A stretch of DNA of 64,000 nt from Candidatus Parcubacteria bacterium (lineage in GTDB: Bacteria; Patescibacteriota; Patescibacteriia; Patescibacteriales; UBA12075), in the NCBI GenBank assembly GCA_963814275.1, contig CAWFCE010000002.1, forward strand, positions 1,067,263 through 1,131,262. Direction: 5' to 3'. The notes beneath the pieces are model-generated. The model was given only the letters and a program-made list of their open reading frames with translations. It was not told where the DNA came from and ran no database searches. Both the position numbers and the translations under genes were made by a program. This document shows, one piece after another, positions 28,378 through 38,556 of the stretch. How positions within the stretch are numbered: position 1 is the stretch's first letter; every line of letters starts with the position of its first letter.

Positions 28378-28448
28378 TCGGGGATCGTCTAGTGGTAGGA
28401 CACCAGGTTCTGGCCCTGGCAACCTTGGTTCGAATCCAGGTCCCCGAG
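28378..28448 (+). tRNA. tRNA-Gln (anticodon CTG at 28410-28412)
   Basis: Hand-folded cloverleaf. Acceptor TCGGGGA/TCCCCGA (U1-A72), discriminator G. D arm GTCT-AGTGGTA-GGAC. Anticodon arm CCAGG-TTCTGGC-CCTGG. T arm CTTGG-TTCGAAT-CCAGG. CCA is not encoded. Confidence 0.85.
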
Positions 28449-28450
28449 CA

Positions 28451-28812
28451 TAATAAAACAGTCCCGACCGAGGGGCTGTTTTATTATGGTTGTGGGATCA
28501 GCGAAGAACTAAGCCAAAGGACGGGAATAAGGCAAATACAAAATAACATACACGGATTCATAAACATTAACAATTTAATCGAAGTGGTGTGAGACGGGGC
28601 TTCCGCCCCTTCGAATCCAGGTCCCCGAGCATAATAAAACAGTCCCGACCGAGGGGCTGTTTTATTATGGTTGTGGGATCAGTGAAGAACTAAGCTAAAG
28701 AACAAGAATAACGCAAATACAAAATAACATACACGGACTCATAAACATTAACAATTTAATCGAAGTGGTGTGAGACGGGGCTTCCGCCCCTTCGAATCCA
28801 GGTCCCCGAGCA
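28451..28812. repeat. two tandem 181-bp units, each ending in a copy of the tRNA-Gln 3' 22 nt (att-like)
   Basis: ttcgaatccaggtccccgagca occurs at 28429-28450 (in the tRNA) and ends again at 28631 and 28812, a period of 181. Each unit starts with the hairpin aaaacagtcccgaccgaggggctgtttt. Confidence 0.9.
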
Positions 28813-29113
28813 AACACGGATGAGCAGGCGCAAAAGCGTCTGTTTTTTCGTAATACTCGCTCTGTTTTAAGAGTTCGGAAGTGGCATTTAGCTTAGGCAT
28901 CCATTCGGATAAAAACTGGTAAGTCGGCGTATATTGAACGATCAACTTTTTGTCCTTCAATTTCAGATCGGCAAAAATTTTGTTTACAAGCGTCCGTTTG
29001 TCGTCCGGCGTTGTTTTATTGCTCAAATACAATTCTTTTGCCTTGTAGGCCAAATCGTGGATTTCTACGCCTACCTCATAATAGTGATAGACAATTACAA
29101 ATACTTCAAATTT
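28748..29113 (-). pseudogene. startless ORF fragment abutting the att copy, possibly the C-terminal remnant of a recombinase
   Basis: The frame is open from the stop at 29116-29114 with no ATG (the track M is a TTG). DDKRTLVNKIFADLKLKDKKLIVQYTPTYQFL resembles, from memory only, the C-terminal tails of large serine recombinases. The last ~20 codons are simply the att repeat read in reverse. Confidence 0.25.
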
Positions 29114-29138
29114 TCAGCGAAGTTTAGCAAATTAGGTG

Positions 29139-29167
29139 TTGACGTTGGAGGTAAAAGGTGCTAATGT
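29139..29167 (+). promoter_or_regulatory. candidate sigma70-type promoter for the island operon
   Basis: TTGACG (29139-29144), a 17-nt spacer, then TAATGT (29162-29167), ~45 nt upstream of the first island gene. Confidence 0.35.
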
Positions 29168-29213
29168 GGTAATAACTTATTAAATTTATCTTAGATAATT
29201 ATTATAAAAAACT

Positions 29214-30703
29214 ATGTATTTAATTTCTCAATCTGAAGGTTTAATAACTTTGTTAATTTTTGGCGTAGCAATGTTCGCTATCATATATTTTTTAACGAAA
29301 AAACAGTTCCATTCTAAAGATGCATTTTTAGTGGCGAGGCGTGAAGTCGGCTGGTTTCGAGGGTCATTAAGCATTGCCGTGAGTTGGATTTGGGCGCCAG
29401 CAGTTTTTATTGCCTCAATGCAAGCTTATACTCAGGGTATTGCGGGTGCATTTTGGTTTATAGTTCCAAATATTATTTGTTTTTTGTGTTCGCGCCCTTA
29501 GCCATTAGATTGAGAAGATTCTTACCAGATGGTTATACTTTGCCAGAGTTTGTTTTAAAGCGCTACGATAATGATAAAAAAACGCACTTAGCATTTTTAG
29601 TATTATTTTTTGGCTACCAGTTGGGTGCAATAATTATTAACACATTGGCGAGCGGAGTCTTGTTAAATGCATTAACCGGCATTAACTTTTATGTTGCAGT
29701 CTTGGCCGTGATGGCAATGGTTTTGCTATATGCTTTGATGAGCGGATTAGAGGCCTCAATTATTACTGATGTTATTCAAATGGCAATGGTTTTGTTGTTT
29801 TGTTTTATTTTGGTTCCGTGGATCATGATAAAGGCTGGTGGCATTTCTTCGGTTATTGGTGGTCTGGGAGGCATAACTGGAAAATTTGGAAATATATTTA
29901 ATCCATGGATAGCATATTCTTTCGGTATCGCCACAACATTAAGTTTAATTTCTGGTCCGATAGGAGATCAGATGTTTTTTCAAAGAGTCTATGCTTCGAA
30001 AAAGGAGCAAATTGTTAAGACTTTTGTTGCCGGTGGTTTAATTTTTGGGTTAGTGCCAACTATTTTGTGCCTCCTTGGCTTTATTGCAGCTAATCCTCAT
30101 TTTAGCTCGGCCATTTTAGTAGCCGACCCACAAATGGTTGGGCCGCTTGTTATTGGATATTTTTTACCTAAAATAGCTTTAATAATATTTTTATTTATGG
30201 CATTCGCAGCATTGGCCTCCACAATCGATAGCTCATATTGCGCCATTAGCTCTTTAGGCACGATAGATATTTATAAAAAATATTTAAATCCTGATGCCAA
30301 TGATAAGCAGTTGTTAAGTGTTTCTCGAAAAGTTATGTTAGTCATGGCCCTGGTCGGAACTGGGATAGCCTTGCTCCAGCCTAAGCTTTTATGGGTATTT
30401 CTTATTTATGGTGCGTTGGCTTCAGCCGGTTTTTTCCCGACGGTGTTTAGTCTATATTGGAAAAGATTAAATAAAAGTGGTGTATTTTGGGCGGTTACTC
30501 TTTCTCTCGTTATAGGCTTACCGCTTTCTGTTTATGCCAATATCACAGAGAATGTAAATCTTATTGTCCTTTCTTCTGTATTAAGCGTAGTCATAGGATT
30601 GATAACTTGTTTAGTTGCAGGATTCTTAAACAACAAAACTGTTTATAGTTTTGAAAAAGGCAAAACAGAAATATTGCCCGTCAAAGCATTGGCAGGAAAT
30701 TAA
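29214..30703 (+). pseudogene. sodium:solute symporter (SSF) family transporter, split by a frameshift near 29480-29500
   Basis: ORF 29214-29501 (FLVARREVGWFRGSLSIAVSWIWAPAVF, an SSF N-terminus) continues in another frame as ORF 29384-30703 (12-13 TM body). The junction sits at the T-run tgttttttgtg. Confidence 0.75.
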
Positions 30704-30711
30704 AATAATAT

Positions 30712-37046: not shown

Positions 37047-37051
37047 ATAGT

Positions 37052-37086
37052 CAATGGGTTATACTTCGGTATGACCCATTTTTTTG
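37052..37086 (+). terminator. intrinsic terminator closing the island operon
   Basis: aatgggt-tatacttcggtatg-acccatt followed by tttttt. Confidence 0.6.
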
Positions 37087-37264
37087 ATAGAAAGGACTGT
37101 CAGACGTGCTATCGAGGGAAGATTATTTTGCTAGCAAATCTCATTTTTAACCTAACAATAAAAATAAATTTAATTTTAGTGGAGGAAATTGAAATTATTC
37201 AATAATTATAATTTTAATTGCATTCGTTCAAAAATAGTTCGGAAGCTGTCCAAGTACGCGAGCA

Positions 37265-37445
37265 TAATAAAACAGTCCCGACCGAGGGGCTGTTTTATTA
37301 TGGTTGTGGGATCAGTGAAGAACTAAGCTAAAGAACGGGAATAACGCAAATACAAAATAACATACACGGACTCATAAACATTAACAATTTAATCGAAGTG
37401 GTGTGAGACGGGGCTTCCGCCCCTTCGAATCCAGGTTCCCGAGCC
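37265..37445. repeat. third 181-bp unit ending in a tRNA-Gln 3'-end copy (1-2 mismatches)
   Basis: taataaaacagtcccgaccgaggggctgtttt...ccccttcgaatccaggttcccgagc is near-identical to units 28451-28631 and 28632-28812. Confidence 0.9.
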
Positions 37446-37650
37446 GAGAAAAATGCGCAAGCGCATCTCGCGGCACGCTGCGAAAATAGTGGTTAGTGCC
37501 GTGAAGGATGGTTAACTTAATTAGCTTTTGGCGCATTTTGATGCGAGCCACGTGGAAGCGAAGCTTCTAAATGTGGCCTAATAAATGCCGTGCTCACTTG
37601 CAATAAATATACAAATATAAAAACACGCCCGTTTGCGTGTTTTTTGTTAT
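37446..37650 (+). ncRNA. candidate structured RNA (~200 nt) ending in an intrinsic terminator; identity unknown
   Basis: Serial hairpins atgcg-caag-cgcat, cggcac...gtgccg, cgcat-tttg-atgcg, and gccac(gaagc-gaa-gcttc)gtggc. Then aaacacgc-ccgttt-gcgtgttttttg at 37621-37648. Confidence 0.2.
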
Positions 37651-38101
37651 AATGGTTAGGATAAATATTCGAATTAATTGATTCCAAAGTTGACAATATT
37701 AAACATGTGAGGGAGATAAAATACTCCTCCTATAATCCATTTTTAAATTCAAGTATGATAAAAAAATTCGATATAGAATAATTGGGAACGCATAACTGCA
37801 AAAAGCAAGGAGTACGATGGTTTAGATTTGGAGAAGTTGTTTCCGACGACTGACAAAATTACTGAGCGATCTATTAAGAAAGCGGAGGAAAGAATTTGTG
37901 GATTTGATAAGGCTGGGAAAAATATAAAGAAAAATTTTATATAGGAATGTTTAAAATATTTAAAAAAGAATTTCCCAAAGCTGTTTCTTTTTACATAAAT
38001 ACATCTCCTTTCTCGTATTTTAATATAGAAAAAAAGTATATTTCAATTTCAATGAGCTGTAATTTGTTATACCGCATATATTACATGAGGCTAACCACTA
38101 T

Positions 38102-38317
38102 ATGTTTAGAAAATATTATCAAGATAAAATAAAAGATGCTCATGATCATGAAGATGTAAAAGAAATTTTTTCCGTTGTGAATAATGATGTTTTAAAACCT
38201 ATGGAAGATCCGTATTGGGCGATGTATGAAGAAAAAAGGTTAAGAGTTTTTAAAAGATGGGCAAAAACACAAGATATAGATAAAGTGATTGAATACATAA
38301 ACAACAACTATAAATAA
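38102..38317 (+). CDS. small hypothetical protein in AT-rich island segment
   Basis: 71-aa ORF with no recognisable motif. Weak call. Confidence 0.25.
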   Translation: MFRKYYQDKIKDAHDHEDVKEIFSVVNNDVLKPMEDPYWAMYEEKRLRVFKRWAKTQDIDKVIEYINNNYK

Positions 38318-38454
38318 AGTCATAAGATTGCCTCGCATTTATTAAATTACTCTTCAAAGAAACAATTTTTTTAATCAGTCTCACTTTATTTCGAATAATT
38401 TTTAAAATTACATAAAAATATTCGGAAGCTGCCAACATATCCCCACACATATTA

Positions 38455-38556
38455 GACTGCCCCGACCGAGGGGCTGTTTTATTATGGTTGTGGGATCAGT
38501 GAAGAGCTAAACCAAAGGAGGGGAATAACGCAAATACAAAAAAATTTAGGTTCCCG
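38455..38556. repeat. fourth, internally deleted copy of the 181-bp unit
   Basis: gactgccccgaccgaggggctgttttattatggttgtgggatcagtgaagagctaa...caaatacaaaa then aggttcccga. The upstream flank aaaatattcggaagctgcca also matches 37233-37252. Confidence 0.75.

Follow-up and report, generated by a model that had tools for sequence, protein, structure and literature searches.

A tandem array of candidate serine-integrase attachment sites behind a Parcubacteria tRNA-Gln gene, probably holding the remnants of two integrated elements

We analyzed a 64,000-nt stretch of DNA from a Candidatus Parcubacteria bacterium (contig CAWFCE010000002.1, positions 1,067,263 to 1,131,262; hereafter, the window), in which an intact tRNA-Gln(CTG) gene is followed by tandem repeats and by AT-rich DNA lying among them. 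The upstream dnaX gene assigns the window to Patescibacteria, and tRNA-Gln(CTG) comes after dnaX in many relatives from this group; thus, tRNA-Gln behind dnaX is a conserved landmark. The terminal 22 nt of the tRNA, TTCGAATCCAGGTCCCCGAGCA, were found exactly at 28429-28450, 28610-28631, and 28791-28812, with two mismatches at 37424-37445, and in a decayed fifth copy, AAAAAATTTAGGTTCCCGAACA, at ~38539-38560. All five copies lie on one strand, no match occurred in 100 shuffled sequences, and identity with the tRNA begins abruptly at the first T of the T loop. The initial annotation of this DNA had pointed out both the recurrence of the tRNA end and the AT-rich composition between the copies, and both observations were confirmed: the G+C content (GC) is 31-36% between the copies (35.5% in the cargo of the element E3 and 31% in the element E4, both described below) and ~49-50% in the flanks.

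What the initial annotation had overlooked is that the 22-mers are the 3' tails of a 181-bp repeat, which was recovered by repeat search, alignment, and blastn. The unit consists of the tRNA terminator (T, ATAATAAAACAGTCCCGACCGAGGGGCTGTTTTATTATGG), a 119-nt spacer (X), and the 22-mer (C), and T forms a 15-bp hairpin at the start of the unit when folded. The tRNA gene and the repeat units are as follows, C0 being the 22-mer of the tRNA itself.

28378-28449 (tail to 28450), plus strand: tRNA-Gln(CTG), intact (ARAGORN; Rfam RF00005, 58.3 bits)
28451-28631, plus strand: repeat unit 1, with T at 28451 to ~28490, X of 119 nt, and C1 at 28610-28631 (repeat search, alignment, blastn)
28632-28812, plus strand: repeat unit 2, ending in C2 at 28791-28812; 96.1% identical to unit 1 and 98.3% to unit 3
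37265-37445, plus strand: repeat unit 3, ending in C3' at 37424-37445 (two mismatches to the tRNA-Gln end)
~38449-38560, plus strand: repeat unit 4 (partial), with T4 and the first ~55 nt of X, a ~65-nt deletion, and the degraded core c4 at ~38539-38560
38561-38610, plus strand: A-rich stretch, hairpin, and TATGGTT after c4 (read from the sequence only)

The full units 1 to 3 share 96.1-98.3% pairwise identity and the partial unit 4 is 91-94% identical to them. Units 1 and 2 differ at seven fixed positions and units 2 and 3 at three, so that units 2 and 3, which stand on either side of E3, are the closest pair. C3' and c4 share a C-to-T change (GGTTCCCGA); the alignment suggests that this T is derived and that units 2 and 3 are sister copies. 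The stretch at 38561-38610 resembles T weakly and may represent either a fifth copy of the terminator that has diverged or the terminator that the tRNA had originally. Units 1 and 2 are contiguous in the native sequence. When E3 and E4 were deleted in silico, Tandem Repeats Finder reported an array with a period of 181, 3.6 copies, and a 95% match; because the deletion restores this array, unit 3 would have been contiguous with unit 2 before the insertion of E3.

Two of the junctions between a 22-mer and a terminator carry further DNA. The first (the tRNA itself) and the second are vacant, the third holds E3, and the fourth holds E4. The sites concerned are those of a large serine recombinase (LSR), which joins the half-sites B and B' of a bacterial attachment site (attB) to the half-sites P and P' of a phage attachment site (attP), leaving attL and attR as hybrids. 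The sites and elements, as assigned from the sequence, are as follows.

28429-28475, plus strand: candidate attB copy 1 (C0/T1), vacant; same sequence as the junction regained on in silico removal of E3
28610-28655, plus strand: candidate attB copy 2 (C1/T2 junction), vacant (unit alignment, blastn)
28813-37264: E3, with the last ~97 LSR codons at its start and the P-type half-site GTTCGGAAGCTGTCCAAGTACGCGAGCA at its end
28791-28850, plus strand: attL of E3, with the B half-site C2, the core CGAGCA at 28807-28812, and the P' arm AACACGGATGAGCAGGCGCAAAAGCGTCTGTTTTTTCG
28793-29092, minus strand: remnant of the LSR gene (last ~97 codons), ~435 N-terminal codons being deleted (tblastn, BLASTP)
37231-37264, plus strand: attR of E3, with the P half-site AAAATAGTTCGGAAGCTGTCCAAGTACG and the core CGAGCA at 37259-37264, followed by the host terminator T3
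37446 to ~38449, plus strand: E4, a ~1.0-kb decayed remnant with small anonymous open reading frames (ORFs), 31% GC, and a P-type arm at its right end
38414-38449, plus strand: putative attR of E4, AAAAATATTCGGAAGCTGCCAACATATCCCCACACA, a decayed P-type half-site followed by T4

E3 has the hybrid attL (B/P') and attR (P/B') of LSR elements. Its attL reads ...GGTCCCCGAGCA/AACACGG and its attR ...AAGTACGCGAGCA/TAATAAAAC, and the sole sequence that they share is the core CGAGCA. The initial annotation had assumed classical regeneration of the tRNA with a partial copy at the distal end, and had placed the right ends at 37445 and 38556; the elements really end at phage-type half-sites, E3 at 37264 and E4 at ~38449, and the true direct repeat of E3 is CGAGCA only. 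The sequence before unit 3, AAAATAGTTCGGAAGCTGTCCAAGTACGCGAGCA/TAATAAAACAG (37231-37264 / unit 3), and that before unit 4 were also considered as decayed tRNA ends. This was rejected, as both are phage-type half-sites.

The two ends of E3 fit together. The minus strand of 37231-37264 encodes LLAYLDSFRTIFE, which matches LLAYRDSFRTF, the native tail of the LSR P0087. When 37264 was joined to 28813, an open LSR C-terminus was obtained, ending in ...HPCLLAYLDSFRTIFERMQLKL before the stop codon (...HPLLLAYRDSFRTFLCEVSNE in P0087). The joined ends rebuild an attP and an intact gene (tail ...LLAYLDSFRTIFERMQLKL before the stop codon, compared with ...LLAYRDSFRTFLCEVSNE in P0087), and the predicted attP junction of an excised E3 circle is GGAAGCTGTCCAAGTACGCGAGCAAACACGGATGAGCAGG. 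The 101-aa ORF at 28748-29053 on the minus strand, just right of the third 22-mer, is the LSR C-terminus. Over 97 aa, the remnant shares 46% identity with the 546-aa LSR of the locus L043 (residues 437-533 of the latter; tblastn; BLASTP E 1e-23), and its closest family members are P0087 (75%) and P0034 (71%, both over 100 aa). Full-length homologues carry the Pfam domains Resolvase, Recombinase, and Zn_ribbon_recom, and the remnant is without the catalytic part, suggesting that E3 is a remnant and not a working LSR element.

Both ends were also found in relatives of known state. L082, which encodes P0034, is an intact prophage of ~9.9 kb whose genes include an LSR, a rolling-circle Rep, and a Zot-like ATPase; the tRNA-Gln(TTG) gene that it occupies has a 3' end identical to that of the tRNA-Gln in the window. 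Its attL reads ...TTCGAATCCAGGTCCCCGAGCA/AACACGGATGAGCAGGCTCAAAAGAGCCTGTTTTTTCG, and its attR is GTTCGGAAGCTATCCGTGTATGCGAGCA, followed by a native A-rich hairpin terminator. L084, which encodes P0087, has a non-integrated attP, ...GTTCGGAAGCTGTCCCTGTACGCGAGCA/ACAAGGGATGAGCAGGC, with the fuller left arm ...AAAAAAGTTCGGAAGCTGTCCCTGTACGCGAGCA/ACAAGGGATGAGCAGGC.... Window positions 28791-29092 share 79.5% DNA identity with the attL and LSR 3' end of L082, and the similarity ends there; positions 37231-37264 are 91% identical over 34 nt to the attP arm of L084 and 85% identical to the attR of L082. The P' hairpin in the attL of E3 is also present after tRNA-Gln in L019 and L043, and would be able to terminate upstream transcription.

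The matches of E3 to phage-like relatives are limited to 280 nt on the left and 34 nt on the right. Inovirus-type genes (Rep, Zot-type ATPase, and coat) were not found within it, and its interior is a metabolic operon. E3 is a putative genomic island: it adjoins a tRNA gene, has a GC of 0.355 compared with ~0.50, and contains an integrase remnant. The view that an integrated element encloses the AT-rich 8.5 kb was borne out.

We compared the half-sites by aligning them on the core. The B-type half-site is GGTTCGAA-----TCCAGGTCCCCGAGCA and the P-type is AGTTCGGAAGCTGTCCAAGTACGCGAGCA: the same motifs are present in both, and the outer one lies 5 nt further out in P. The attR of E3 accordingly has a 5-nt insertion relative to the B-type half-site, and the distance from TTCG to the end of the core in the window is 27 nt in the P-type and 22 nt in the B-type. 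The same 27/22-nt offset was found in L082 and L258, and L098 fits it if the crossover lies within GCGCGC; the case of L089 came from a scan that imposes the 5-nt spacer. For serine integrases, the zinc-ribbon-domain motif is described as "shifted 5 bp toward the centre" in attB (PMC3783163), and the offset seen here, with the outer motif 5 bp further out in attP than in attB, is the predicted signature of an attP/attB pair of such enzymes. A general two-block scan for the 5-nt offset that tolerated mismatches, run over all surveyed loci, was noisy (5 real matches and 1 control-strand match at spacer 5) and had background at other spacings, and we therefore relied on the individually inspected cases. 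A 15-mer of the P arm gave 35 raw matches in viral contigs, among which only L258 stands beside an LSR of the family and a tRNA end.

All unit 22-mers are B-type (TTCGAA, 13 nt, GC, and A), and C0 is the left B-type half-site of the tRNA's own attB. Because TTCGAA and GTCGGG (inside T) sit 19 nt on either side, we place the central dinucleotide at the GC of CGAGCA, in which case the 22-mer would be a complete left half-site. Every junction between a 22-mer and a terminator would thereby recreate a ~40-bp attB of the LSR family.

For E4, the motif before unit 4 is AAAAATATTCGGAAGCTG... (38414-38449), and the exact 11-mer TTCGGAAGCTG occurs only at 37238 and 38421 within the window. Because this P-type motif recurs before unit 4, we defined E4 as a second, older element, in agreement with the proposal of an older insertion distal to the 8.5-kb one. 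By our own reading, the minus-strand translation of its attR, ..GSFRIFLC, resembles the tail SFRTFLC of P0087. The ORFs of E4 and those upstream gave no match beyond a SET domain when compared with PHROGs and Pfam.

To place these sites in context, 80 metagenome loci and 3 further loci were screened for the LSR/tRNA layout. The LSR 3' end abuts a convergent tRNA at 44 of the screened loci (tRNAs for Asn, Gln, Ser, Asp, Glu, Arg, His, Val, and Ile). The family comprises 2,651 proteins at E ≤ 1e-20, many with names from Patescibacteria lineages, and shares at most 30% identity with deposited phage integrases. L043 is a prophage-like element at the same tRNA-Gln, with its LSR convergent on the tRNA and the last LSR codons formed by the reverse complement of the tRNA 3' end; L043 and L082 both carry the Rep and Zot-type gene kit. 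In integrated copies generally, the LSR tails are translated tRNA 3' ends, such as LLGDxDSN for tRNA-Gln, and a few copies end in LLAYRDSFRT... or LLAWRDSFRT..., the native tail across attP. The C-terminal tail shows whether a copy is integrated. The family is found across Patescibacteria; the small, phage-like elements that carry it lie at the 3' ends of tRNAs, and their LSR genes converge on these tRNAs. The initial annotation was right in regarding tRNA-Gln as a recurrent integration hotspot.

Additional copies of a tRNA end were uncommon among the screened tRNA-Gln and LSR-tRNA loci, with three cases (L019, L098, and L107). L098 (flipped; 11875-12080), at tRNA-Asp, has an exact 21-nt B-type copy ~125 nt beyond attR, with a terminator that differs from the proximal one. 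L107 (flipped; 339-520) has an LSR at a 3' fragment of tRNA-Asn, 69 nt behind the real tRNA. L019 has a 5.6-kb island (12679-18340) at the same tRNA-Gln, bounded by a second 22-nt copy of the tRNA end and without an integrase; it encodes a RadC-Dcm methylase fusion, a HaeII-type endonuclease, and Vsr-like, peptidoglycan-binding, and RelA/SpoT-domain proteins. Extra B-type tRNA ends near LSR elements are thus not unique to the window, and displaced old tRNA ends may also contribute. Separately, the tRNA-Ser LSR locus L089 (flipped) has at ~9980 an internal attP-like junction, GGTTCGGATAACG...TGCGGGATGAGCAGGCTCG, in which a P arm is followed by the P' hairpin; this may be the join of two tandem elements.

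We consider it likely that the locus is a tRNA-linked attB array of about four 181-bp units, with the remnants of two LSR elements in copies 3 and 4. According to this explanation, two small phage-like elements would have entered the array by recombination between their attP and attB copies 3 and 4, with the crossover inside CGAGCA. Each insertion would have produced an attL, in which the tRNA-type half-site meets the LSR 3' end, and an attR, in which the phage-type half-site meets the terminator. Since then, E3 would have shed all phage genes and ~80% of the LSR gene, and what now fills it is a seven-gene amino-acid operon; E4 would be an older wreck, and the tRNA's own attB and the second copy would have stayed empty. 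The carrying observations are that E3 has its attL and attR, that intact and non-integrated relatives are homologous to them, that the half-sites are offset by 5 nt, and that the array closes seamlessly after excision in silico. These observations support two insertions into a pre-existing or co-evolving tandem attB array and not four serial insertions at the tRNA. The additional attB copies would be functional targets on this explanation, the array would be older than the insertions, and GC is the putative crossover dinucleotide. The array itself could have been produced by plain tandem duplication of a segment bounded by the T loop and the end of X, or by unequal exchange and precise excision of a duplicated element.

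Several points weigh against this interpretation. The closest dnaX relatives of the window show only ~54% identity, and an exact 36-mer of the repeat had no match in the metagenome or viral collections, so that an empty or differently occupied locus could not be demonstrated. Beyond the 22 nt, the left context of the additional attB copies is unlike the tRNA, making them candidate LSR targets only. The right half-sites (B' and P') mirror the left ones only weakly. E4 is defined by its right end and its position only, and its left end showed no significant similarity to P' arms. It is also conceivable that E3 inserted at the tRNA itself and was only afterwards displaced. Because the distal terminator in L098 differs, which fits a displaced tRNA end better than a tandem duplication, the origin of extra copies may involve another mechanism. 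Finally, the sharp start of identity at the T loop would also be expected of the identity block of a tyrosine integrase.

An unlikely alternative is a secondary array: the true attB of the tRNA received one element, and the 22-mer units between the tRNA and E3 were formed afterwards. This could have occurred by unequal sister-chromatid exchange between 22-mers or between 181-bp copies, after which the LSR precisely excised the duplicate element, or by amplification of a displaced old tRNA 3' end that had been left behind by an earlier element carrying its own tRNA end. The 98.3% identity of the units that flank E3 fits such a history, and the single tRNA-end copies with unlike flanks in L098 and L107 suggest displaced ends over plain duplication. 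However, it requires more steps than insertion into an existing array, neither a second E3 copy nor another intermediate was seen, and homologous recombination between 22-nt repeats is inefficient. The identities of the B-type and P-type sites are unchanged by it.

The history proposed in the initial annotation was serial accretion, with at least four elements entering the tRNA (28451-28631, 28632-28812, 28813-37445, and 37446-38556), the older ones being pushed outward and two decaying to 181-bp stubs. Five 22-mers on one strand are what it would leave, the abrupt identity at the T loop is as in tyrosine-integrase identity blocks, and tandem accretion at tRNA genes is well documented (PMC7192596; tycheposons). 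However, the supposed stubs begin with the host terminator (B' sequence) that also follows both attR, end in an attB-type (B) half-site, and are without a P or P' arm. The same 159-nt interior is present in all four units at 91-98% identity, which independent decay would not yield, and on the right E3 and E4 in fact end 181 nt and ~110 nt short of the positions proposed. The only integrase evidence is for a serine integrase, for which attL and attR are not integration substrates (PMC3783163), so that repeated entry at one attB is unexpected. Because the stubs are host-type attB repeats sharing the same interior, we rejected them as reduced elements; the evidence favours two events, E3 and E4, in place of four, and serial accretion is accordingly quite improbable.

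Still less probable is that the 181-bp unit serves mainly as an RNA gene or a processing signal, transcribed together with the tRNA as in the case of rtT, and that its use by integrases is incidental; this would be compatible with the attB-array interpretation. The layout resembles that of E. coli tyrT, where, as Egan and Landy reportedly described in 1978, a 178-bp unit is repeated ~3.14 times and each repeat ends in the tRNA-Tyr 3' end. The unit in the window folds better than shuffled sequences (z = -3.8), and one tyrT repeat unit encodes the small RNA rttR (PMC3318445). On the other hand, most of the fold score is due to the hairpin of the terminator with which the unit opens, and this hairpin should block read-through from the tRNA. 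An Rfam scan of 27500-39200 (E ≤ 1) returned the tRNA as the sole match and no RtT, a scan for promoter and terminator consensus sequences gave no excess (its terminator rule overlooked the obvious T hairpin), and no homologous unit was found in the collections searched.

That the assembly joined strain variants of a single 181-bp segment end to end, or expanded a repeat, is hardly credible: short reads alone cannot give the copy number and the short-read Logan assembly breaks at both repeat edges, but the units carry the fixed differences given above, the source contig is 1.27 Mb, unique DNA between units 3 and 4 leaves no room for collapse or expansion there, and contig L165 of this separate Logan assembly (run ERR11571143), which breaks inside the repeats, reproduces 28783-37288, and hence both E3 junctions into units 2 and 3, at 100%, so that these junctions are not peculiar to one assembly.

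We compared the locus with known systems. The studied LSRs of temperate phages (such as phiC31, Bxb1, and A118/LI) are known mostly for targeting protein-coding genes. The family described here resembles them in its three-domain enzyme (in intact relatives), short att sites, tiny core, and hybrid attL and attR; it differs in being at most 30% identical to them and in targeting tRNA 3' ends. The LSR frame here also crosses attP, so that its last codons change on integration, and the enzyme gene in the window is truncated. An attP half-site that equals the attB half-site with its outer motif 5 bp outward is likewise common to both (PMC3783163).

The filamentous Ralstonia phages phiRSM integrate with a serine recombinase at the 3' end of tRNA-Ser, with attP beside a reverse-oriented int (PMC3816273). 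They share with the present family a small Rep/Zot-type element, its own serine recombinase, and the tRNA 3' end as a target, L082 and L043 having the same gene kit. They differ in having a small resolvase/invertase-type enzyme and a 13-nt identical core, in contrast to the LSR, 6-nt core, and offset half-sites found here, and the element in the window is without any phage genes. Inoviruses with serine recombinases, and inoviruses in the candidate phyla radiation (CPR), have already been catalogued (PMC6813254).

Islands anchored at tRNA genes are known to grow by successive tandem elements (Islander/TIGER, PMC7192596; Prochlorococcus tycheposons, 10.1101/2020.12.28.424599), and tyrosine recombinases are present in 910 of 937 tycheposons (10.1101/2020.12.28.424599). 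A tRNA hotspot, partial tRNA copies, integrase fragments, and ecological-type cargo are common to those arrays and the window. However, the partial tRNA copies there are att cores left by the elements, whereas those in the window are part of a host-type tandem repeat, where they mark docking sites of which two are unused, and the element ends carry a different, phage-type sequence.

The tyrT repeats share with the window tandem ~180-bp units directly 3' of a tRNA, each with the last ~20 nt of the tRNA; the period here is 181 and the copy number ~3.6. They differ in that there is no sequence or Rfam relationship, and in that the window junctions are predicted serine-integrase attB sites, two of them occupied. 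We know of no link between tyrT repeats and integrases. Our literature search found no description of a tandem array of complete serine-integrase attB sites behind a tRNA, part occupied and part vacant. That tRNA-linked tandem repeats in general act as multi-copy attB landing pads for serine integrases is a tentative idea, which we hold to be possible but doubtful.

A serine integrase destroys attB on integration; thus, a single attB holds only one element. If the attB copies are functional, the locus would be a natural multi-site docking array, which would explain tandem build-up despite a recombinase that consumes its target. Multiplied attB sites would let several elements and exchanged cargo pile up, with the native terminator of the tRNA left in place. 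Genomic islands in streamlined Patescibacteria genomes would then have a separate way to grow, and tyrT-like tRNA-linked repeats would gain a first functional rationale. More boldly, the array itself might expand by repeated rounds in which an element is duplicated and then precisely excised. The genomes of Patescibacteria (CPR) are tiny, and few ways in which they gain genes have been described; here the LSR family would deliver or shelter a rare metabolic operon. The 5-nt offset and the integration-dependent LSR tail would together provide a simple rule for reading the att sites of hundreds of uncharacterised integrases, which would be useful for mobile-element annotation and integrase bioprospecting.

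The cargo of E3 was annotated with Pfam and NCBIfam as follows.

29214-37046, plus strand: AT-rich cargo operon of seven genes (GC 0.355)
29214-29501 and 29384-30703, plus strand: Na+/solute symporter in two overlapping ORFs (95 aa and 439 aa)
30712-31674, plus strand: type I asparaginase, the sole cargo gene above the NCBIfam cut-off
31689-32330, plus strand: S51 peptidase (Pfam/NCBIfam)
32342-33580, plus strand: class I/II aminotransferase (Pfam/NCBIfam)
33604-34152, plus strand: GNAT acetyltransferase (Pfam/NCBIfam)
34200-35615, plus strand: AMP-binding ligase (Pfam/NCBIfam)
35712/35763-37046, plus strand: divergent class II aminoacyl-tRNA synthetase (aaRS) paralog similar to lysyl-tRNA synthetase (LysRS), 100 bits against a cut-off of 468

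The symporter is also split in the independent Logan assembly, and its ortholog in L167 (84% identical) is intact at 490 aa; the copy in the window is probably a frameshifted pseudogene. The LysRS-like paralog belongs to a family of 38 proteins (E ≤ 1e-10) among 5.8 billion. It adjoins the AMP-ligase gene in L166, L167, and L169, and also the aminotransferase and S51 peptidase genes in L166 and L167; the cluster is an uncharacterised conserved operon of small-genome bacteria. The operon without the GNAT gene was found in two other contigs at ~36% GC, with no LSR or tRNA nearby. We speculate from the gene set that it serves to modify an amino acid or small peptide, possibly with self-protection. 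The possibility that the operon is native to the locus was rejected, as it lies inside the att boundaries and has a GC of 0.355 compared with 0.50.

The Logan contig L169 has a 92%-identical copy of 34130-37085, which stops 39 nt after the synthetase gene and is followed (L169 3067-4012) by a truncated LSR C-terminus convergent on tRNA-His(GTG). The orientation of the cargo is opposite between the E3 and L169 LSR/tRNA scaffolds. Since the same cargo is present in two such scaffolds in opposite orientation, the comparison argues that it may move with, or between, LSR elements. A small zinc-finger-like ORF in L169 is fused to or overlaps the truncated LSR C-terminus.

Upstream of the tRNA, the gap between dnaX and tRNA-Gln (27015-28377) is 1.3 kb long and AT-rich (GC 0.36). 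Its minus strand encodes a SET-domain protein (27015-27518) and a Cys-rich 128-aa protein that belongs to no family (27751-28137). The distance from dnaX to the tRNA is ~50 to 900 nt in many relatives, and the 1.3-kb gap may be another insertion, on the 5' side of tRNA-Gln. Database look-ups of the flank proteins (the 128-aa ORF, the Transgly_assoc protein, and an aaRS-like protein with a TTG start) returned nothing, or only a 1.1-kb contig. A 437-aa gene lies 35 kb downstream in the window (62265-63578), and its homolog stands directly after dnaX in the Falkowbacteria-like loci L006, L007, L008, L009, L011, and L024. The whole 27-62 kb region may be variable relative to distant relatives, or may simply be rearranged. 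An IS30-family insertion sequence (38980-40047) lies ~420 nt past the last repeat unit and adjoins the Transgly_assoc gene (38689-38934, minus strand). It encodes a 338-aa transposase (HTH_38 and rve) and is bounded by perfect 18-bp inverted repeats at 38980-38997 and 40030-40047.

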